Below, one piece after another: positions 6,574 to 32,237 of a stretch of 64,000 nucleotides of DNA (position 1 is the stretch's first letter; the number at the start of each line of letters is the position of its first letter). The stretch comes from Escherichia phage Phi1, in sequence record EF437941; one strand, given 5' to 3'. The notes under the pieces were generated by a model. That model was not told the DNA's origin, searched no databases, and worked only from the letters and a program-made list of their open reading frames with translations. Both the position numbers and the translations under genes were made by a program.

Positions 6574-7965
6574 TCAAATATAGTCTACTCGATACCGCGC
6601 ACGGGTAACACCCACATATAATAACTGCATTGCCAATTCGAAGTCAACATTGTCTGTACACATGCAAGGAGTATACAGGAACACGCGGTCTACGCTGATC
6701 CCTTGTGACTTATGAATGGTGCAAGCTGGTAATGCTTTTACATTCAAGAACATACGTTTCATAGTCCAGAAAGAGTCCCAATCTGGTTTAAATTTTGGAT
6801 TCTCTTTCTTCATTTCGCGATATTGTCCGGCGACCGTATTCAGATAGATAGAGAAAATGTTCTTCTGACGTTGTTCTGTCAGAATGTTGATTTCTACCAA
6901 ATCCGGTTTATCTGTAGTGATTCCGACTGCATCTAAACCGACTTTCTGATTTAGGATTTCTTTGTCTTCGTCATCATCGACGCTTTCCACTTTCAGAGTA
7001 TAGCCTAAAACTGGTTGCGGGTCTACTCCCGTGCAACGTAATGTAAATTCACGCGGGATGACCTCTTTAACTCGGATCATCTCACCATTGTTAAAAATGA
7101 CATTGGGAATCTTCTTCCCGCGTTCATCTCGCAGATATTCGATCAACGGTTCCTGAGTAACCAGAATTTCATCTACAATCACTGGTTCATCGGTGTTATA
7201 AACGCGCTTGCGCACAATTTCATTGAGTTTTTCGACGCTCTTGTTAGTGTAAGCCAGAATACGGTTTTCTAGAAGGTCTTCCGGCGTTTTAACGGTTTCG
7301 AAATAATGTTTCATAAACTCCGGCAGAGTTGAGCTATGGAATACACCCTCGTTACCGCACTGCTTTTCGAATACCCATTTACCGTTACGGACAGCGGTCG
7401 CCACATCAATGATCGGTGCATTAGATCGTTTAATTTCTGTCAACTCCACGTTTTGAAAATTTTCATCCGTGAAGAAAGGAGAAATTGACGTTGCACCGCT
7501 CGGATCAACTGGTCGTAACTGGTGCGGATCGCCCACGGCAATAATAACAATTCGACCGTTGATACTCTTCATGAGAATATCAAATAACTTCTTATCGACC
7601 ATACTCGCTTCATCAACAATGATGATCTGAACATCATCTAGTTTAGGAGTATCTTTTTGTTCAAATACTTGAGTATCTTCATAGTTGGTCGGGTTAAGAC
7701 GCAATAAAGCATGTAAAGTAAATGCTTGACGACCTACCGCTTTACTCAAAACCTTTTTAGCCTGGTGGGTAGGCGTTGCCAAAACCACACCAGTTACACC
7801 ACGGCGGACCATTTCCTGAACAATGAATTTCATCATTGCGGTTTTACCAGTACCCGCCGCACCCCGGACAGTTGTATGCTTCTTTTGTTCAATGCGTTTC
7901 ATTAGAACATCAAAAGCATGTTTTTGCCCGTCTGTCAACATATCGAAAGTTAATACTCTGCTCAT
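6574..7965 (-). CDS. dda: Dda DNA helicase (SF1)
   Basis: 463 aa; Walker A GAAGTGKT, DEASM Walker B; strong similarity along length to T4 Dda as remembered. Confidence 0.9.
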   Translation of the reverse strand: MSRVLTFDMLTDGQKHAFDVLMKRIEQKKHTTVRGAAGTGKTAMMKFIVQEMVRRGVTGVVLATPTHQAKKVLSKAVGRQAFTLHALLRLNPTNYEDTQVFEQKDTPKLDDVQIIIVDEASMVDKKLFDILMKSINGRIVIIAVGDPHQLRPVDPSGATSISPFFTDENFQNVELTEIKRSNAPIIDVATAVRNGKWVFEKQCGNEGVFHSSTLPEFMKHYFETVKTPEDLLENRILAYTNKSVEKLNEIVRKRVYNTDEPVIVDEILVTQEPLIEYLRDERGKKIPNVIFNNGEMIRVKEVIPREFTLRCTGVDPQPVLGYTLKVESVDDDEDKEILNQKVGLDAVGITTDKPDLVEINILTEQRQKNIFSIYLNTVAGQYREMKKENPKFKPDWDSFWTMKRMFLNVKALPACTIHKSQGISVDRVFLYTPCMCTDNVDFELAMQLLYVGVTRARYRVDYI

Positions 7966-10200: not shown

Positions 10201-11229
10201 TTAAAATTTACAATATTTCATAAACCGCATTTTAGCCATCAGACCTTGTACGGTGTTCTCTTTGATGTATTCCATGATCTGGTCGCGTGTAGCGCCCTCG
10301 TCCTGAATCATGGCATTAACGTCTTTAGAATGCCACGGGCAACGATCCCACAAAACAATCTTTTCCCCTGCATTGATAAACTTTTCCAGTCGGTGCATTG
10401 TATCGGCTGACCGTGGTTCCGCATCAAGTACAAACACTCGTTGGTCTGGGAAAGGGATTTCATCTAATCCCAACGTACCGCCAGTAATTGCACACCCGTT
10501 ATCAATAAACAATGAATCGATCGGACCTTCTAAGAAATACACTGGTTTACTCGGATCGGCGCGTTCAAGACCATAGACCTTACTCGCTAACTCGTGAGTT
10601 TTAATCGTCATATATTTGGTCTTTCCGTAATCCTTTCTCAATGCTCGCCCCTGAATGGATTCTATCTTGTTCTCGCGGTTAAAGATAGGAATCACTAAAC
10701 GCGGTTCAGGTTGTGGATTCTTGAAAGTATCAGCCTTAATGTGATTTGCTACCTTTTGCCATTCTCTCGTGAAATACAGAAGATCCCATTTATCGTGGGG
10801 AATGCAACGATCACTGACATACTTTATTATAGGATGATTAGCCGGAAGAGTATCTAATCTCTCGCAGAAAGGCAATGTTTGCACTTTCTTAATCTCCGGC
10901 TTTTCTACCTTTTTCAGTGGCTTGAACGTGGTGTTCTTGTGGTCGCCTTGTTCCTTCCGTCGTTCCATAAGCCATTCCCTGAATAGGTCCGGCTTATATT
11001 GTTTGAGAAATTCACCTAACGGCTGATTGTAGTTACAGTTGAAACAGCCGCAACGCAAACTATCCTTATAGGTATAGATACGGAATCGCGCTTGAGTATG
11101 ATTTTTCTTTGAGTCACCGCAGATCGGACAACTACAGACCAGCGTAAATGAGCTAGTATGCAACCGTTTAAAATTTCGTTCGCCGTATATGGCTTTTTCC
11201 GCTATTTCATAATCTGCGTAGTAAATCAT
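10201..11229 (-). CDS. 61: DNA primase gp61
   Basis: 342 aa; N-terminal CPICGD zinc ribbon, Toprim-like core, C-terminal MAKMR..KY; same length as T4 gp61. Confidence 0.9.
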   Translation of the reverse strand: MIYYADYEIAEKAIYGERNFKRLHTSSFTLVCSCPICGDSKKNHTQARFRIYTYKDSLRCGCFNCNYNQPLGEFLKQYKPDLFREWLMERRKEQGDHKNTTFKPLKKVEKPEIKKVQTLPFCERLDTLPANHPIIKYVSDRCIPHDKWDLLYFTREWQKVANHIKADTFKNPQPEPRLVIPIFNRENKIESIQGRALRKDYGKTKYMTIKTHELASKVYGLERADPSKPVYFLEGPIDSLFIDNGCAITGGTLGLDEIPFPDQRVFVLDAEPRSADTMHRLEKFINAGEKIVLWDRCPWHSKDVNAMIQDEGATRDQIMEYIKENTVQGLMAKMRFMKYCKF

Positions 11230-11238
11230 AATAACCTC

Positions 11239-11442
11239 TTATAGCTCAAATTTCATGAAAGTTCCTACACTTTCATTTTCATTCTCTCCGTTTTCATCTA
11301 AGCCAAATTTATAGACACTACCATCTGGCGATGTGTAAGAGAATACACGAAAACGGCCTACCGGATCAAGTTCTGTAAATTCATATTCTTTTCCGGCTTC
11401 AAAAAGTGCATATGTGCTTTTAAGACATTTCATCGTAATCAT
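11239..11442 (-). CDS. hypothetical protein
   Basis: 67-aa ORF. Confidence 0.5.
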   Translation of the reverse strand: MITMKCLKSTYALFEAGKEYEFTELDPVGRFRVFSYTSPDGSVYKFGLDENGENENESVGTFMKFEL

Positions 11443-11582
11443 TTAAGCGCCACCGACAACAGAATGAGAACTACACCAACATACATTGTGATCTCGGATA
11501 ACTTTTCTGTTTTTGTTTTGTGTCCAGATAATCCGAAAACAACAACACCGATAATAGCGGACAGCAAGCCAACGATAAACAT
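11439..11582 (-). CDS. small membrane protein (47 aa)
   Basis: manual translation MFIVGLLSAIIGVVVFGLSG...; stop overlaps next ATG. Confidence 0.4.
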   Translation of the reverse strand: MFIVGLLSAIIGVVVFGLSGHKTKTEKLSEITMYVGVVLILLSVALK

Positions 11583-11589
11583 GATGATA

Positions 11590-11766
11590 CTAAGCACCGT
11601 CTTTCTCCTTTTTGCGTTTTTCTTTACCCGCTACACTAGGTCCACGATTGGTAATAGATCCGTTCGTTTCACCTGCTGCGATCTTCTCAGGATTGCCGCC
11701 AGCATCGCCAGCGGTCATATCTTCTTTGAGTTTATTTTCTTCAACAAACTGTTTAAAGCCAATCAT
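11590..11766 (-). CDS. small protein (58 aa)
   Basis: manual translation MIGFKQFVEENKLKEDMTAGDAGG...; ATGA overlap with upstream gene. Confidence 0.4.
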   Translation of the reverse strand: MIGFKQFVEENKLKEDMTAGDAGGNPEKIAAGETNGSITNRGPSVAGKEKRKKEKDGA

Positions 11767-12140
11767 AGAATAATCTCTTTCAGTAAGTCAACAATCTGGT
11801 CTTTTGTCAGTTTATCCTGATTCTCTACAATCTTGATAACACAAGCGTTAACATCTTTTCGAGTCACGCGGGAGATCGTTTTAATACGATGAAACGGTTC
11901 GTAGAAATATACTGCTTCATTATAGAGAGCGGATACTTTACGACGCATTTGATCTTTATCCGACAAGAAAACAAGTGCTGTTTTATGACCTTCTACACCC
12001 GCCACGTTATATAGTTCAGCAACACCCCAGCGACCGTCCGGTTCAATCATTCCGGCGTGTTTACCGTCGATAAAAATAAGAATATCTCCGTTGAATGCGG
12101 TTTTGAATGCTACATCTTCCGGCGTAATCATATTTTTCAT
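11763..12140 (-). CDS. hypothetical protein
   Basis: 125-aa ORF. Confidence 0.55.
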   Translation of the reverse strand: MKNMITPEDVAFKTAFNGDILIFIDGKHAGMIEPDGRWGVAELYNVAGVEGHKTALVFLSDKDQMRRKVSALYNEAVYFYEPFHRIKTISRVTRKDVNACVIKIVENQDKLTKDQIVDLLKEIIL

Positions 12141-25527: not shown

Positions 25528-26553
25528 CTAACTTTTTGCGCTATTTACTTCGGCTAAAAGTTCATCAGAAATACGCTTAACTGCCGCAAGTTCTTCCGGT
25601 TCTAGGTTTTGTTCTTCCAGATATTCGTAGACCATCTGAATAGTGCTTTTAACTTCAATAACACCTGTTTCCTGTGATGCGCTACTCTCCAGCTTATGGA
25701 CCACTTTTAGCTTGTGTACAACGGCCTCTAACGCGCTTTCTAACTTACTTAACCCATTATCAGCAACCGTTGCGATAAGACGCACACTAAGCCCCTTAAA
25801 GCGTTCTACATCGATTTTATCATCTGACGGGTAAGTGATACGCACATGATAAGTTTTGTCATTCTGGATAAACTCTTTTTTGTGTGTATCGGTATCGAAT
25901 ACCCAAAACCCACGCGGATCGTTTTCGTCACCCGCCGTTAGTGTGTATGGTGTACCAATATACGTTACGTTACCGCCATCACTGATAGTATGAAAGTGAC
26001 CGGAAAACACTTCACGGTATTTCTTTAGGAAGTCCGCGCTATAACCTTCGGATTTTAGACCTTTATAGAAATAGTAACCGGACAATTCCCAATGGCCTAC
26101 ACAATATTCGCTGAATGAGTTTTGAATAAACTCTAAAATCTCTGATTTGTTATCATCACAAAACCACGGGAACAGATCAAATGATACACCATCAAAGGTG
26201 AATGTTTCCGGCTTATCAATAACTTTAATACAATCATACTGGCTTAACACTTCACGCGGTGCGTTAGGCTGGATCTTGTTTCGTTTAAACATATCATGAT
26301 TCCCAACCGTGATATAACAAGTAATACCAGCCTCTTCCAGTAGCGGGATAATTTTCGTTCTATTAAAACGCATAGTTGCATGTGTGATTGCTTTTCGGCA
26401 ATCAAACCAGTCCCCTGTCTGAATCCATACCTTAATATTATGCTCTTTGGAGTATTCAACCGCTTTCTTGATGGTATCAAGAATATACTCATGCACCCAC
26501 GGATCATCGCCACCGATACCAGTATGCAGATCACCTAAAAGCAAAATTTTCAT
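25528..26553 (-). CDS. 47: recombination nuclease gp47 (Mre11/SbcD-like)
   Basis: 341 aa; calcineurin-like phosphoesterase motifs GDLH, GDWFD, GNHD. Confidence 0.9.
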   Translation of the reverse strand: MKILLLGDLHTGIGGDDPWVHEYILDTIKKAVEYSKEHNIKVWIQTGDWFDCRKAITHATMRFNRTKIIPLLEEAGITCYITVGNHDMFKRNKIQPNAPREVLSQYDCIKVIDKPETFTFDGVSFDLFPWFCDDNKSEILEFIQNSFSEYCVGHWELSGYYFYKGLKSEGYSADFLKKYREVFSGHFHTISDGGNVTYIGTPYTLTAGDENDPRGFWVFDTDTHKKEFIQNDKTYHVRITYPSDDKIDVERFKGLSVRLIATVADNGLSKLESALEAVVHKLKVVHKLESSASQETGVIEVKSTIQMVYEYLEEQNLEPEELAAVKRISDELLAEVNSAKS

Positions 26554-26599
26554 AGTCTCTTCCTCTCTTCGTTTTCGATGCTCTCACTATATCACAGAA

Positions 26600-26625
26600 A
26601 AATAAAAAGGGAAACCCCTTTCAGA
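26600..26625 (-). terminator. weak hairpin/terminator
   Basis: AAAGGGGTTTCCCTTT followed by T-run on minus strand. Confidence 0.3.
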
Positions 26626-26643
26626 GTCTCCCTTATAAAGCCA

Positions 26644-26958
26644 TTACAGCATACTTAATACCGTTTGCCTTGTACTAATCCACATAGCAGAAAGCAGTTC
26701 TGGCGTGTGTGGCTGTTTGTAGATATCACGTAACTTTCCGATAGCGTAGATATACGCATCACGGTTATCATCGATGATAGCTTGTTCAGCCCACCGCTTA
26801 AGGCGTGCAATCTCTCGCGAGTTCTTACGCAAGATCTTTTCCGCTTTCTTAGCGGCTTTAGCCTCTAGTTCTGCTTGTACTTTGTCTACTTCATTCACTG
26901 CAATCTGGTCATGCTGTTCATCGTAAGTCATGTTATTTTCCTTCCGGGATATAGTCAA
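26644..26958 (-). CDS. hypothetical protein
   Basis: 104-aa ORF. Confidence 0.5.
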   Translation of the reverse strand: MTISRKENNMTYDEQHDQIAVNEVDKVQAELEAKAAKKAEKILRKNSREIARLKRWAEQAIIDDNRDAYIYAIGKLRDIYKQPHTPELLSAMWISTRQTVLSML

Positions 26959-27166
26959 TTATTAAAGAAAATTCATCTTCTGATACATTATAGCTATGTG
27001 AGATTGTACCCGTCAAGACCTCAAGATCCGGTGATTTGATATTGCACGGATCGATAATCACCGGAACACCGCAATCTCTCAAAAATAATTTGGCGAAATA
27101 CGGCACAAGGTCAGTTTCAAACTCGGCTTCTTCCAGCAAACGGGAAATGTTAATTTTCAATCTCAT
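26933..27166 (-). CDS. hypothetical protein
   Basis: 77-aa ORF. Confidence 0.45.
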
Positions 27167-27683
27167 AAAATTGGTCCAGGCTAGGCAATTCCTCGGTCAA
27201 TACATCTTCAACCTTTGGCGCTTTCGGTTTATTGACCGATTCCTCGTAGTTGTTGATTTTATCGTAAATGTCCTGTATGAATGCCTCATCAGCAATCTGG
27301 CACATATCAGCGTCGCGTTCGTCATATACATGATGCACAAAATATTTGTATTTTGCGGCTGTCGCTGTTCTTTCTTTTTTAATGCGCTGCACAAAAGCAT
27401 TAAAGCACGCTTGCGTGATGTAAGCATGAGGATTTTTATACTTTGTCTCGTCAAAATTAATCAAACCCTTGACCGCCGCTTCGATTCCGTCGTCGATCAT
27501 TTCTTCGCGCCATGTTTGACTATAACCAGAAAAGTTAAAACGCCGTGATAGATTTTTAGAGATTTGCATAATTGCCAGGCCGATTTGATCGCTCATTGGC
27601 ACTTGCCGACCTTCTGCTGCAATTCGTTGTTTCCAACGGCAAATTTCTTCGTAAAGCTCTTTATTGTTTACATAATCAGACAT
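27150..27683 (-). CDS. 55: late-transcription sigma factor gp55
   Basis: 177 aa; strong similarity to T4 gp55 as remembered ([31 protein letters not shown]). Confidence 0.9.
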
Positions 27684-27723
27684 TTCGCACCCTCGCTATT
27701 ATTTAGGAAATAACCCTTTCGGG

Positions 27724-29193
27724 CTATTCCCCATTGCCATTATACTTTCTTTGCTTAGTTATCCACACTCTAACCATCTCTACTGATTCGCCGTCAGAGG
27801 GATCAAGAGTTTTTCCTTTTTTCTTCATGCGGTACTTAAATCCGTTAAATCTTGCATTCTCTTGCTCGTTAAAGTCGAACATCTTTTTAAATGATTTTCT
27901 CCCTTTACGCTCACCGCATTCTAGCGGAATCATTCGATCTGTTATTACATTGGCATTAGGCAGAAACGTTTTTAGATAATCCACCAACGCCCAATCAGGA
28001 ACATATAGATTAACATTCTCCTTGCTCTCGTTGTCTCTCAGGTTACAACGCAAACATAATTGAAATGCTGGTTCCAGATAATCAGACACATGACGCGCTT
28101 TCAAAAACTCGTTTGTCGGGAGATCACAACTATTAGCAAGACCTTTTAAAATATCAATCTCCCATCGTTGAGGGTTAAAGCTGAACATCACAGCAACATT
28201 TTTATGATGAATGTAAGAGTTAAGACCATAAGATCCGTAAGGTATCCGCTCACCAATACCATTTGTGCACGCTTCACGGTCCCGATTCACGGTATAAATG
28301 AAGTCATCACCACATTCATTTTTAACCATATCAACAAGACGTTCAAAGGTATTGTTTGTTTCTGACTGGTGACGTGACCAGCGTTCGGAGTCCGTCATAA
28401 GGATGATGTTAACTCTATCTGTATTTTTATACTCTTTGAAATATAGTCTGGATTCTAGCGCACTCGGAACAAAATCGCAATTTGCATAGTATCGTAGATA
28501 CTTCCCACTATATGTATCAAAGAGATTTGCACATGCTATCGTAACCTTTTTAAAGTCTCCCCACGTAACGTGTTTGTTATCGTTCAAGAAAACAATTTTC
28601 GACCCATTCTTCCGGTGTCCTTCGTTATGTTTTACCATAACGTTGATTTTCTTCTCTAATAACGCCTCATAAAGCCCTCTAAGAGAAGAATCGATCATAT
28701 CAGTACCATCCTTTGCACTTTCTATCTTTTCTTTGATAGCGGCCTTCTCAGAGTCTTTTAGAACTAAGTTCTGTAGGCATTCCGATTCGTCGGCGATTGG
28801 TTCGCAATGCTTCGTGATAAGTTCAAGATTAGACTTAAACGGATACTCATTAAATTCAACCAGTTGAGGAACTTCATCAATGTAAAGAGCATATTCACCA
28901 AACATTTTTGAACGTTCCATATTAGATAACGCTGTATGTGTAATGAATATCACATCAGCACCATCTTTAACTGATTGCATTATAGACGCTTGCACTGTCT
29001 TAAGGCTTCTTAGTCTTGTGCTATCAATCAAGACAGCACGACCGCCCATTCTTTTAAACTTATTGTAAGATTGTTCACTTAAAACACGAGATGGCGAAGC
29101 AATAACCGCTTTTTCTTTTGTCTCTAGGACGTGGGAAAGTATAGCATCAGTTTTCCCCGCCGCTGGCAATGCGATTAATGTTTCAATCTTCAT
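27724..29193 (-). CDS. P-loop NTPase, helicase-like (function unknown)
   Basis: 489 aa; Walker A ALPAAGKT at residues 8-15, SPSRVL (motif Ia-like), YIDEVPQ Walker B; remaining 370 aa without motifs I recognise. Confidence 0.65.
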   Translation of the reverse strand: MKIETLIALPAAGKTDAILSHVLETKEKAVIASPSRVLSEQSYNKFKRMGGRAVLIDSTRLRSLKTVQASIMQSVKDGADVIFITHTALSNMERSKMFGEYALYIDEVPQLVEFNEYPFKSNLELITKHCEPIADESECLQNLVLKDSEKAAIKEKIESAKDGTDMIDSSLRGLYEALLEKKINVMVKHNEGHRKNGSKIVFLNDNKHVTWGDFKKVTIACANLFDTYSGKYLRYYANCDFVPSALESRLYFKEYKNTDRVNIILMTDSERWSRHQSETNNTFERLVDMVKNECGDDFIYTVNRDREACTNGIGERIPYGSYGLNSYIHHKNVAVMFSFNPQRWEIDILKGLANSCDLPTNEFLKARHVSDYLEPAFQLCLRCNLRDNESKENVNLYVPDWALVDYLKTFLPNANVITDRMIPLECGERKGRKSFKKMFDFNEQENARFNGFKYRMKKKGKTLDPSDGESVEMVRVWITKQRKYNGNGE

Positions 29194-29498
29194 TAGAAAC
29201 CCTTACGTCGTGCTTTCTGGCATTTCTTAATCATTTTATCAGAAATTTCGCGCTTAGGTGCAATCTCTTTCACACCGAAAGCACTAATGCCAAATTCAGA
29301 GAGAATATATTCAACCAACAATTCACGCACACGCGCTTTACCGATATTCACGCCGTTATTTTTCAGATATGTCTGGCCTTCGACTTGCATCAGATCTAAG
29401 TCTGCGTCGGTAATATTGATTTCTTCCATGCGCCCAAATCGAGAATAAACCATGTGTGCGATTGCATTGTGTACTAACATAATATATTCCTCACTCAA
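29193..29498 (-). CDS. hypothetical protein, translationally coupled to NTPase
   Basis: 101-aa ORF whose stop overlaps NTPase start. Confidence 0.5.
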   Translation of the reverse strand: MSEEYIMLVHNAIAHMVYSRFGRMEEINITDADLDLMQVEGQTYLKNNGVNIGKARVRELLVEYILSEFGISAFGVKEIAPKREISDKMIKKCQKARRKGF

Positions 29499-29501
29499 GA
29501 A

Positions 29502-29660
29502 TTACTTAATGATACTTACTTTACCAGATCCGTGACAATGAGCGCAACACCCATCACCACGCAATCCTGTTCCGTTACAGTGTTTACACTTCTTCAACGG
29601 TAAAGCCATTATAGCAAATAAAGCAATAATGAACACAGAAACTAAATTCTCAATAATCAT
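29502..29660 (-). CDS. small membrane-anchored zinc-finger protein (52 aa)
   Basis: manual translation: N-terminal hydrophobic segment then CKHCNGTG...CAHCHGSG (DnaJ-type CxxCxGxG x2); GAGGG RBS. Confidence 0.4.
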   Translation of the reverse strand: MIIENLVSVFIIALFAIMALPLKKCKHCNGTGLRGDGCCAHCHGSGKVSIIK

Positions 29661-29919
29661 AAATCGCCCTCAGTTCTTTATAGCCTCCAATGTGCTCGTT
29701 GTCAATGAATATCTGGGGGTATACAAATCGGAGGCTCTTTGAGTTCAGCCTCCCCGCCAGTTCTTCAATCATATCACGGTCGGGAATAATGTCAACCCCG
29801 ACCTGCTTGAATACTGGTTTAAGTGTATACGGAATACCCAGATCATCCAGTAGCTTCATTGCACCAATACAACCATAACAATGATAAGCCTCTTTCGGTA
29901 TGCCGTATATCTCGATCAT
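29650..29919 (-). CDS. glutaredoxin/NrdH-like redoxin
   Basis: 89 aa; CYGC dithiol motif near N-terminus, glutaredoxin-like length; nrdH position. Confidence 0.6.
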   Translation of the reverse strand: MIEIYGIPKEAYHCYGCIGAMKLLDDLGIPYTLKPVFKQVGVDIIPDRDMIEELAGRLNSKSLRFVYPQIFIDNEHIGGYKELRAIYDY

Positions 29920-30392
29920 TTCTCAGCCTTTAATCTTTCTAGTTCTTCTTGCAGTTCCTTGATCCGTTGGTCACGTTCAAAGTCACGCTGCAACTTAGTG
30001 GCAAATACTCGTTTAAACTGTTTGTAATCATCGATTTTAAACACTTCTTCTTCGCCATAGCGACGCACAGAAACTTCGTAGTTATTGAAGAATTGTTGCA
30101 TCATTGCTTCGGATGATAGTTCTGCTGATACTACTTTAAAATATTGATCTTCGGTAGGTGAAAACCAATTACAAGCATAAAGATAAACCTTTTCATTGTC
30201 TGGACACTGGTAAGCCTTACCATCGATTTCAATCACAGAAACATATTCAGGTATAGTAGATGAATCAATAGCTAAGACTTTAAACGAACGGTCCCCGATA
30301 AACTCGGAGATCACACGATTCGCATCACTGGTTGCAAAGGCTTTACGCGCTTGTTCGCTTTTCCACTGATAGGTCATACCAACAACAAACAT
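29916..30392 (-). CDS. paralog family A protein
   Basis: MFVVGMTYQWKSEQARKAF...IEIDGKAY...; shares the about 90-aa N-terminal domain with seven neighbours. Confidence 0.55.
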   Translation of the reverse strand: MFVVGMTYQWKSEQARKAFATSDANRVISEFIGDRSFKVLAIDSSTIPEYVSVIEIDGKAYQCPDNEKVYLYACNWFSPTEDQYFKVVSAELSSEAMMQQFFNNYEVSVRRYGEEEVFKIDDYKQFKRVFATKLQRDFERDQRIKELQEELERLKAEK

Positions 30393-30393
30393 A

Positions 30394-31218
30394 TTACCAA
30401 CCTCGCTCTTTACCAATCAAAAATTCAACTTCACGACGTTTAATGTCTTCTTGAAGGTCTTTAATCTTCTGGCGATCTTGCATGATTTCGTCCATTTTGT
30501 CAAGTGCTGCAATAAAATCATCGAAACGTTCAAAGGTTTTACCTTCATTTGCTTCGCCAAATTTAACCATTGTCAGGCCGTAACGACTACTAAACAGACG
30601 TTTCAACTGTCCAACGATCTTAGAATCAGTGGTTATAACTTCCAATTCTTCTACTTCTTGAAAGAATTTTCTATCAGAATCAATAAACCAGCTAGTTCCT
30701 TTATGGTCTTTATCCTCGGTTGCGCTCATTAGAGTATGGTCTTTACCATCAATTTCAATTACATCAATTTGCCCACATGGACTAACCTTTTTAACAGTAA
30801 AAGGTCTATAATTTATTGCTCGTGCAATAACATAATTAAGGTTAGATACGTTTTCAGCATAATGACAGAAGTCGGTCATAGCCTTATCATCTTTCCCAGT
30901 GTAAGTTTTACCAACCTCCCATTTCTGGAGAACTTCTTCAACTTCACGAAAGAATTTTCTATCGAATGGACTAAAGAAATATGTTGCAGTCCAAATGTCT
31001 TTTCCTGTAGCAGTTTTCGCCGTATGATAAACACCGTCTAGCTCTATTGCATTAATCCAACCGTTACCCTCGATCTCGATGATGGTAAATGGCTTGTCAC
31101 CAATAGCTACGCTAATATCGCTATTAAGTGGAGAAAGAACACCTTCTCCGTTAGTAATAAACTCAGTTTTAGAGTTTTCATCTTTCCAAGTGTAAGTTTT
31201 ACCAATTTCCCATTTCAT
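30394..31218 (-). CDS. paralog family A protein (two tandem domain copies)
   Basis: MKWEIGKTYTWKD...DRKFFREVEE then KWEVGKTYTGKD...DRKFFQEVEE, followed by coiled-coil tail. Confidence 0.6.
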   Translation of the reverse strand: MKWEIGKTYTWKDENSKTEFITNGEGVLSPLNSDISVAIGDKPFTIIEIEGNGWINAIELDGVYHTAKTATGKDIWTATYFFSPFDRKFFREVEEVLQKWEVGKTYTGKDDKAMTDFCHYAENVSNLNYVIARAINYRPFTVKKVSPCGQIDVIEIDGKDHTLMSATEDKDHKGTSWFIDSDRKFFQEVEELEVITTDSKIVGQLKRLFSSRYGLTMVKFGEANEGKTFERFDDFIAALDKMDEIMQDRQKIKDLQEDIKRREVEFLIGKERGW

Positions 31219-31230
31219 AATATATTCCCC

Positions 31231-31695
31231 TTAACCGATTTTATCAAGTTCGTTTAATGCTTTCTCTGCTTCCTGTATAGCTTGCACCCTTTCCGGCATT
31301 TTGTCAAGAAAATCTTTCAACTCTTCAAAACTGGAGATATGACGCAAGGCGTTAGCACCGATAGCCGCATGTGATTTGCATTCAAAGCGAATTTTATAAT
31401 TATCCATCGCCAATTTGAGAAGATCAATTAGTTTAGATTCTTCTGGAATACTAATTTCTTCAAATCTGCTACGGTCGTGATCCAGAAACCAACAATATAG
31501 ACCTACATCGGTTGAACTCATATAAGTTCCATCATGAAGATATACAGATCGCACGTATCCTTTTTTCACATCAACCGACGCAACTTTAAACGGTAATCTC
31601 AGATATTTCAAATAATCAACATCATACCATTTAAAAAATTGGTTTGCATCTTTTACATCTTTCCACGCATAGGTCTTACCAACTTCCCATTTCAT
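31231..31695 (-). CDS. paralog family A protein
   Basis: MKWEVGKTYAWKD ... DRSRFEEI; helical C-terminus. Confidence 0.6.
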   Translation of the reverse strand: MKWEVGKTYAWKDVKDANQFFKWYDVDYLKYLRLPFKVASVDVKKGYVRSVYLHDGTYMSSTDVGLYCWFLDHDRSRFEEISIPEESKLIDLLKLAMDNYKIRFECKSHAAIGANALRHISSFEELKDFLDKMPERVQAIQEAEKALNELDKIG

Positions 31696-31699
31696 AATA

Positions 31700-32227
31700 T
31701 CATCTCTCATTTTTGATACGTGATTCTAATTGGATCATACGGTCGCGCGTTTGCTTGTATTCGCGGATAGCACCGATCCGGCTAGGCATACCATCCAGTA
31801 CGCTCTTAATCCCTTCTAGGGTAGTGATTTTAGCAATGCTATTATGTAACCCCATCTTATCGATCAACTGAATGTCGTAGGCTTCCATAAGCAGACCCAG
31901 GCGTTCTAAAGTTAGGTCTTCTTCCTTTTCTTCCGATTCTGGAATCTTAGGTTCAATAGTAACTTCTGTAAAGAAACGACGCTCACCCGACCAAAACCAC
32001 ACGCCGGAACAACCAATAGGGGATTCTTTTAACGTCATAGAGTCGTAACCACTGCCGATAATAGTAATTTCTCTAACATCACCATCATCGTCAATGTCTT
32101 CTACCCTAAACGGGCGACCAGCCAACAAGTCAACAATACATCTGTTAATAGACGACGAAAATTTAGTCAGTTCGGCTTTCGACGCTTCGCATTCAATCTT
32201 GTAAGTTTTACCAACTTCCCATTCCAT
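31700..32227 (-). CDS. paralog family A protein
   Basis: MEWEVGKTYKIE ... ERRFFTEV; helical C-terminus; GAGGTGA RBS. Confidence 0.6.
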   Translation of the reverse strand: MEWEVGKTYKIECEASKAELTKFSSSINRCIVDLLAGRPFRVEDIDDDGDVREITIIGSGYDSMTLKESPIGCSGVWFWSGERRFFTEVTIEPKIPESEEKEEDLTLERLGLLMEAYDIQLIDKMGLHNSIAKITTLEGIKSVLDGMPSRIGAIREYKQTRDRMIQLESRIKNER

Positions 32228-32237
32228 AATAATCACC

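Follow-up and report, generated by a model that had tools for sequence, protein, structure and literature searches.

Helicases of the XPD/Rad3/DinG group are 5'->3' DNA helicases of superfamily 2, about 550-740 aa long, that combine two RecA domains with an insertion following motif II in domain 1, and some DinG and CasDinG proteins are without the iron-sulfur (Fe-S) cluster. The small protein gp55.2 of phage T4 is a DNA-binding protein that inhibits topoisomerase I of Escherichia coli, stops the relaxation of negative supercoils, increases the copy number of R-loop-primed plasmids and brings a fitness gain for T4, and the authors of that study suggested that it acts preferentially on R-looped DNA (PMC4396842). 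Herein, we analyzed a locus of Escherichia phage Phi1 in which predicted counterparts of both are encoded side by side. The window, that is, the whole analyzed stretch of 64,000 nucleotides (sequence record EF437941), carries on its minus strand a gene for a 489-aa protein (27724..29193, starting with ATG) and, upstream of it, a small open reading frame (ORF) that extends at most to 101 aa from a TTG codon (29193..29498). The 489-aa protein was filed as a superfamily 2 (SF2) helicase of XPD/DinG-like architecture, and the small ORF reads as a gp55.2 gene. We consider it rather probable that the former is a catalytically intact accessory helicase of phage DNA metabolism, co-transcribed with gp55.2.

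The window belongs to an RB49-like Krischvirus; its positions 27000-30500 shared 98.5-98.9% nucleotide identity with RB49, AV108, GEC-3S, and JSE. Both genes are real, far beyond chance, because homologues of the 489-aa protein were found in 242 phage records and the differences from RB49 lie mostly at third codon positions. For the helicase gene, there were 15 nucleotide differences from RB49, 13 of them at third positions, and a single amino-acid change.

Sequence motifs and predicted fold of the 489-aa protein

The features of the protein, with their positions in the window, were as follows.

27724..29193, minus strand: 489-aa SF2 helicase of XPD/DinG-like architecture, predicted from homology and model; counterpart of RB49ORF044c and identical to phi1p044
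29149..29166, minus strand: Walker A (motif I), PAAGKT, residues 10-15; P10, G13, K14, and T15 invariant in 42 homologues
28867..28878, minus strand: Walker B (motif II), DEVP, residues 106-109; D106, E107, and P109 invariant in the 42-homologue alignment
28549..28836, minus strand: predicted insertion domain within RecA domain 1 (residues ~120-215), after motif II and before the motif III-like strand VTIACAN
27934..28461, minus strand: predicted RecA-like domain 2, residues ~245-420, with an invariant HGLN-type loop (G323, N325) and motif VI
28036-28062, minus strand: motif VI, QLCLRCNLR, residues 378-386; Q..R..R invariant
27727..27933, minus strand: basic helical C-terminal tail, residues 421-489 (GRK...KKKGK...W477); AlphaFold2 helices at 443-458 and 468-484

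Sequence methods reached the N-terminus only. Pfam matched DEAD on residues 11-130 with 27.4 bits (cut-off 26), and a scan at E ≤ 1 returned DEAD, AAA_34, and two weak unrelated matches, the XPD/DinG signature (DEAD_2 / Helicase_C_2) being absent at this threshold. Nothing usable was found in PDB by sequence with either the single protein or the family profile, NCBIfam held no family for either protein of the locus, and phrog_2467, which the 489-aa protein matched, has no assigned function. Conserved blocks nevertheless spanned the full length of the 42-homologue alignment. These were motif I (PAAGKT), motif Ia (ASxSRxLSxQS), VIFITH, motif II (LYIDEVP), TIAxAN, FIYTxN, PYxxHGLN, motif VI (EPAFQLCxRxNxR), and VPD. 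Within this T4-like set Q378, R382, and R386 were invariant, as were G13, K14, T15, D106, and E107. The same was true of E445 and W477 in the tail, which also aligned in the nearest non-T4 relatives. When distant relatives were aligned (A2, A3), the only invariant columns left were the Walker A lysine, the Walker B DE, G..N, and Q..R..R, as one would expect if the motor is active.

A confident AlphaFold model was built on the 42-homologue alignment, with a predicted local distance difference test (pLDDT) of 87.6 and a predicted template modeling score (pTM) of 0.75. It contained RecA domains 1 and 2, the basic tail, and, at ~120-215, an insertion that separates the TIACAN strand from the strand following Walker B. 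The insertion was modeled as helices and a beta-hairpin and would occupy the position of the XPD Arch domain. The structure matches of the model are given below, each with its two listed values.

2vl7, XPD: 17.2; 327
3crv, XPD: 16.0; 345
9kqh, F. magna DinG: 15.4; 368
8s35_M, type IV-A3 CasDinG: 15.0; 320
5fmf_Y, Rad3: 14.8; 343
6fwr, E. coli DinG: 14.7; 370

A relative with 23% identity (P0043), modeled separately with a pLDDT of 88.8, had the same top five structure matches. As modeled, the 489-aa protein has a complete SF2 helicase fold, which explains its whole length. A sequence-only reading of the locus had described the protein as a helicase-like P-loop NTPase, and the Pfam DEAD match, the two-RecA fold, and the intact motifs bear this out. 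PAAGKT (residues 10-15), SPSRVL (33-38), and DEVP (106-109) were found where that reading had put them. In the model, the 370 C-terminal residues in which it recognized nothing comprise the remainder of RecA domain 1, the insertion domain, the motif VI-bearing RecA domain 2, and the basic tail. Its view of a C-terminal part with nothing recognizable is partly overturned, in that the whole length fits a helicase fold.

The likeness to XPD/Rad3/DinG, especially to forms without an Fe-S cluster such as type IV CasDinG, lies in the two RecA domains, the domain 1 insertion after motif II, the intact motifs I, Ia, II, and VI, and an overall fold closest to XPD/DinG. Unlike those proteins, the Phi1 protein is only 489 aa long, has no 4-Cys Fe-S domain, spaces its motif VI as Q-x3-R-x3-R, and ends in a basic C-terminal tail of its own, probably a nucleic-acid-binding extension as judged from the model. 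No four-Cys Fe-S cluster was present in the alignments A1, A2, and A3, where C130 and C380 were the only conserved cysteines, and the segment from Walker A to Walker B is ~90 residues long with one or two cysteines. Because the cluster is absent and the sequence signature was not detected, we kept the protein outside the XPD/DinG family proper. An entry that reads 'hypothetical protein' in ~240 T4-like phage genomes can thus be described as a compact XPD/DinG-like SF2 helicase without an Fe-S cluster, and its upstream neighbor can be annotated as the topoisomerase I inhibitor gp55.2.

The gp55.2 orthologue, gene order and predicted transcription signals

The small gene was delimited as follows.

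29193..29480, minus strand: gene 55.2 orthologue, 95 aa, with ATG at 29480 and the Shine-Dalgarno sequence GAGG at 29489-29492; the maximal ORF reaches TTG at 29498

The encoded protein matched Pfam DUF7570 (E 1.4e-28, 99.2 bits, cut-off 27) and phrog_1475, and was 42% identical over its full length to gp55.2 of the T4-type Tequatrovirus phage PP01 (E 7e-20). The name 55.2 is the one annotated in RB49, RB43, and Aeh1. By sequence, the small ORF is an orthologue of T4 gp55.2, with which it shares the slot between nrdH and gene 55, and by analogy with the T4 protein the RB49-type gp55.2 is a predicted DNA-binding inhibitor of host topoisomerase I. It had been taken for an unfamiliar partner of the NTPase, a view that does not survive: the protein belongs with a known inhibitor, and tblastn found 55.2 in 1,091 phage records, T-even phages included, against 242 for the helicase.

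The start of the gene is most likely ATG 29480, giving 95 aa rather than 101, because GAGG stands 8 nt upstream of it, TTG 29498 has no Shine-Dalgarno sequence, and RB49 annotates the 95-aa form. The small ORF does end at the start of the NTPase gene, as previously noted, since its stop codon and the ATG of the 489-aa gene have base 29193 in common in the junction TAATG; the earlier length of 101 aa is what changes. The overlap had also been read as a sign of co-translation. It is nothing special here, as 11 of 26 neighboring gene junctions overlap in the RB49 annotation.

The order of genes on the minus strand is nrdH, a 52-aa ORF, the small gene, the 489-aa gene, and gene 55. The neighbors and predicted signals were as follows.

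29650..29919, minus strand: nrdH
29502..29660, minus strand: 52-aa ORF (RB49ORF046c), between the small gene and nrdH
27150..27683, minus strand: gene 55, directly downstream of the 489-aa gene
29509..29538, minus strand: predicted sigma-70-like promoter match TTGTCA-18-TATCAT, 10/12, just upstream of 55.2, from a consensus scan only
27704..27733, minus strand: hairpin with a 13-bp stem and a GAAA loop that overlaps the stop codon of the helicase gene and lies 20 nt ahead of the start of gene 55

The pair had been described as flanked by gene 55 and nrdH within a variable region, and this holds, with the 52-aa ORF as a further gene on the nrdH side. The T-even order is 55.2-55.1-ORF-55, in which small genes (55.1 and a further ORF) come after gp55.2 and a helicase is missing, whereas Phi1 has the 489-aa helicase gene instead.

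To sample synteny, a 55.2 hidden Markov model was built and run against the ORFs in all six frames of 11 T4-like loci, which came from different genera. Gene 55.2 was directly upstream of the helicase gene in nine of them (RB49, Aeh1, RB43, PM2, S13, 65.2, MP1, Ahp1, and JC221), whereas it was likewise upstream but 5-6 small ORFs away in 44RR2.8t and Cronus. Gene 55 was no longer downstream in RB43 and JC221, yet the nrdH-55.2-helicase block was intact. No helicase relative outside Straboviridae had a 55.2 neighbor, and no 55.2-helicase fusion was found among 202 family proteins. The co-occurrence of the pair, which the sequence-only reading had named as a point to check, is confirmed as adjacency in most of the sampled lineages and broken in two. 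We regard 55.2 and the helicase gene as conserved but separable neighbors, probably co-transcribed, and not as an obligate two-component system; the locus is an ordinary accessory gene pair without prior study rather than a new kind of system.

Because a sigma-70-like site precedes 55.2 and a hairpin lies on the helicase stop codon, a two-gene transcript is plausible. The proposed two-gene operon stands to the extent that a short transcription unit is possible, with promoter function as a prediction only. The consensus scan gave a stronger sigma-70-like match (11/12, with TG) at 29768-29795, within nrdH. The hairpin folds as RNA at -20.1 kcal/mol (z = -3.3) and is not followed by a U-tract. 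That same position holds an annotated terminator in Morganella phage MP1 and a dispersed intergenic repeat in 44RR2.8t; the hairpin may be the 3' end or a stability element of the 55.2-helicase transcript. Rfam returned no RNA family anywhere in the window.

The GC content of the helicase gene was 0.389, compared with 0.402 for the window, and its product was 35-42% identical to those of eight other lineages, tracking the gp55 identity of 39-64%. Recent horizontal acquisition was ruled out, as the GC content matches the genome and the divergence parallels that of gp55. These data fit an old gene, vertically inherited in many non-T-even T4-like phages and missing from T-evens. Restriction to phages with unmodified cytosine was likewise ruled out, as the gene is present in Erwinia phage Cronus (Tevenvirinae), which has an alpha-glucosyltransferase.

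Relatives carrying primase-like domains

A profile search of 1.84 billion representatives gave 1,330 family matches at E ≤ 1e-3, 765 of them at E ≤ 1e-10. The family falls into two size classes, ~450-600 aa and ~750-890 aa, and 67 of 189 family proteins (150 of the 189 came from the profile search) were at least 700 aa long. The N-terminal ~450 residues of the long relatives were homologous to the 489-aa protein (E 1e-25 to 1e-38) and matched phrog_2467 at 1e-43 to 1e-60. Their C-terminal domains matched DNA-primase PHROGs, namely 9765 in eight, 2135 in seven, and 17236 in two of 14 long relatives, and one long relative matched a PHROG named 'replicative helicase-primase'. PriCT_1 was detected in two of the 14, and PriCT_1 or PriCT_2 in a few members of the family. 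Read by eye, the C-terminal extension showed two strands, D-x-[DE] and the conserved R-x-R-V, and a G-x-D-x-x-K motif; the long relatives also have a PriCT-like helical end. The arrangement of an SF2 helicase at the N-terminus and a primase-like domain at the C-terminus was observed in P0043, P0077, P0065, and ~60 others (alignments A2 and A4).

From their sequences, the long relatives are read as helicase-primase fusions. Typical primase-helicase fusions have the primase at the N-terminus and a helicase of SF3 or SF4. The fusions described here (phrog_31024-type; SF2 helicase, a domain like archaeo-eukaryotic primases (AEP), and PriCT) resemble the Phi1 protein in the homologous N-terminal helicase part, whereas the primase-like and PriCT domains have no counterpart in it. 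The fusion in the long relatives points to DNA and replication-type transactions for the helicase module, and also to a lineage of SF2-type helicase-primases, as yet undescribed, in mobile elements.

No such fusion was found in the isolated-phage and plasmid collections, where Atu_ph07 appeared for the helicase part only and the plasmid collection gave just three weak matches, to Sinorhizobium megaplasmids. Neither P0051 nor P0077 had a match in IMG/VR. In BFVD, the same fold was present in Atu_ph07, phiRSL1, Fnu1, and Pseudoalteromonas phages. In Mesorhizobium sp. Root552 (L005, 7998..10385), a P0077-like gene occurs as separate ORFs for a 462-aa helicase and a 289-aa primase-like protein, either split or frameshifted. 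The ORF that follows (10513-11985) has a match to type I restriction R-subunit domain 3, and housekeeping genes lie around.

Proposed role and competing explanations

The window also encodes Dda, gp41, UvsX, and gp39, and RB49 has uvsW, so the 489-aa protein is an additional helicase. Replacement of Dda or gp41 was ruled out, both being encoded in the window. The protein is orthologous to neither Dda, which lies at 6574-7965, nor UvsW, whose gene is separate in RB49, and its fold is nearer to XPD/DinG than to UvsW.

If the 489-aa protein acts as an accessory helicase, the locus would consist of two early/middle-type DNA-metabolism genes transcribed together. The upstream gp55.2 would, as in T4, block the relaxation of negative supercoils by host topoisomerase I. 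The helicase would grip DNA through its basic tail and the RecA cleft, hydrolyze ATP by means of K14, D106/E107, and R382/R386, and move along single-stranded DNA, probably 5'->3' as XPD and DinG do. It would then unwind or clear branched DNA (for example, forks, D-loops, or R-loops) during phage replication and recombination, as an accessory enzyme in addition to Dda, gp41, and UvsW. ATP-driven translocation on DNA and action on branched replication and recombination intermediates are what we infer for it. The enzymology of replication and recombination has its reference system in T4-like phages, where the protein would be a fourth helicase, present in RB49, RB43, and Aeromonas, Proteus, and Cronobacter phages and absent from T4.

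Several points weigh against this assignment. Both the substrate (DNA or RNA) and the polarity are inferred. The primase link belongs to relatives, as the 489-aa protein ends after its basic tail without a primase-like domain. All GenBank phage records call the product hypothetical, and the UniRef/PGAP name 'DEAD/DEAH box helicase (domain-containing)' is automatic. A literature search for the gene found no functional study, the sole mention found being a 2006 table in which RB49ORF044c matched Pfam DEAD at E = 0.069.

A closer tie between the neighbors would make gp55.2 and the DinG-like helicase a functional pair, in which gp55.2, by blocking host topoisomerase I, favors negative supercoiling and R-loops at origins of the phage or in transcribed regions and the helicase processes, removes, or loads at R-loops. 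We consider this unlikely, although it is the best of the alternatives. Such a pair would suit the fact that both R-loops and D-loops are unwound by E. coli DinG, and that T4 uses R-loops to fire its origins and has UvsW to remove them. The gene arrangement would suit it as well, with 55.2 directly upstream and stop and start codons overlapping or nearly abutting in the nine lineages, and the block kept in RB43 and JC221 despite the departure of gene 55. The higher copy number of R-loop-primed plasmids with T4 gp55.2, and its suggested preference for R-looped DNA, are further points in favor (PMC4396842). However, gp55.2 works in T4 and occurs in roughly 800+ other phage records without this helicase, 5-6 ORFs split the two genes in 44RR2.8t and Cronus, and neither a 55.2 neighbor of helicase relatives outside Straboviridae nor a fusion among the 202 family proteins was seen. 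As T4-like genomes are collinear anyway, synteny is weak evidence. Cooperation of the two proteins on R-loops is speculative; if true, it would tie host topoisomerase inhibition to R-loop processing, the basis here being conserved gene order.

Another candidate role for the helicase is that of a DNA translocase in counter-defence, for example, protecting or modifying incoming DNA against restriction, like the P1 DarB-type methylase-helicase pairing. In three unrelated large phages or contigs, a homologue has just upstream of it a DNA methyltransferase gene, of class D12 in Atu_ph07 and N6_N4 in L015 and L017, and the Phi1 gene sits in a variable, early-transcribed region. We nevertheless judge this role to be quite improbable. 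Neither the window nor any of the T4-like loci examined has an adjacent methyltransferase gene, the three adjacencies may be coincidence, and old vertical inheritance is unlike a shuffled accessory cassette. PADLOC gave no defence or counter-defence match: 55.2 matched nothing, and the helicase had a single sub-threshold match at E 0.0089, without any significant stretch.

The three methyltransferase-helicase loci (Atu_ph07, L013, 2639..7283; L015, 5610..9497; L017, 7321..9488) have a noncoding gap of 1.0-1.8 kb after the helicase homologue, without tRNAs. Short palindromes abound in the gaps of L015 and L017, with TATAGCGTTGCTATA, for example, occurring three times, whereas a single short inverted repeat was found in that of L013. 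Beyond the gap, L015 and L017 have a convergent block of small ORFs.

A broader scenario would treat the family as an undescribed, widespread, compact XPD/DinG-like lineage without Fe-S clusters, replicative and fused to AEP-type primases in mobile elements, from which the T4-like form was recruited with gp55.2 for R-loop-dependent initiation; in this full form, it is a doubtful proposition with only a small chance of being right. That the protein is a DEAD-box-like RNA helicase for phage transcripts or for late transcription is the least probable of all: although DEAD is the Pfam family matched and gene 55, for the late sigma factor, comes next downstream in most lineages, DEVP, TIACAN, and QLCLRCNLR stand in place of DEAD, SAT, and HRIGR, Helicase_C is not matched, the best full-length structure matches are DNA helicases, relatives are fused to primase-like domains, and the gene 55 adjacency is lost in RB43 and JC221.

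Three further features were observed near the pair. The 52-aa ORF RB49ORF046c encodes a hydrophobic N-terminal helix followed by two CxxCxGxG motifs (CKHCNGTG and CAHCHGSG), the pattern of the DnaJ zinc-finger domain, and had no Pfam match at E ≤ 0.001; judged from these motifs, it may be a tiny membrane-anchored zinc-finger protein. At 26553..26644, the window has ~90 bp where RB49 carries RB49ORF040c, an HNH/AP2 homing-endonuclease-like gene (555 bp, L001 5000..5554) between gene 47 and a-gt.4; a terminator-like hairpin (26603-26634) lies there in Phi1, and from the coordinates the mobile endonuclease appears to be absent. On the minus strand at 29916..32236, a tandem paralogue array without a Pfam match is formed by four consecutive genes (166, 274, 159, and 178 aa) with ~25% identity. 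They contain five copies of one module, MxWEVGKTYxWK ... RPFxV ... IEIDG ... WF..DRxFFxEV, two of which are in the 274-aa gene.

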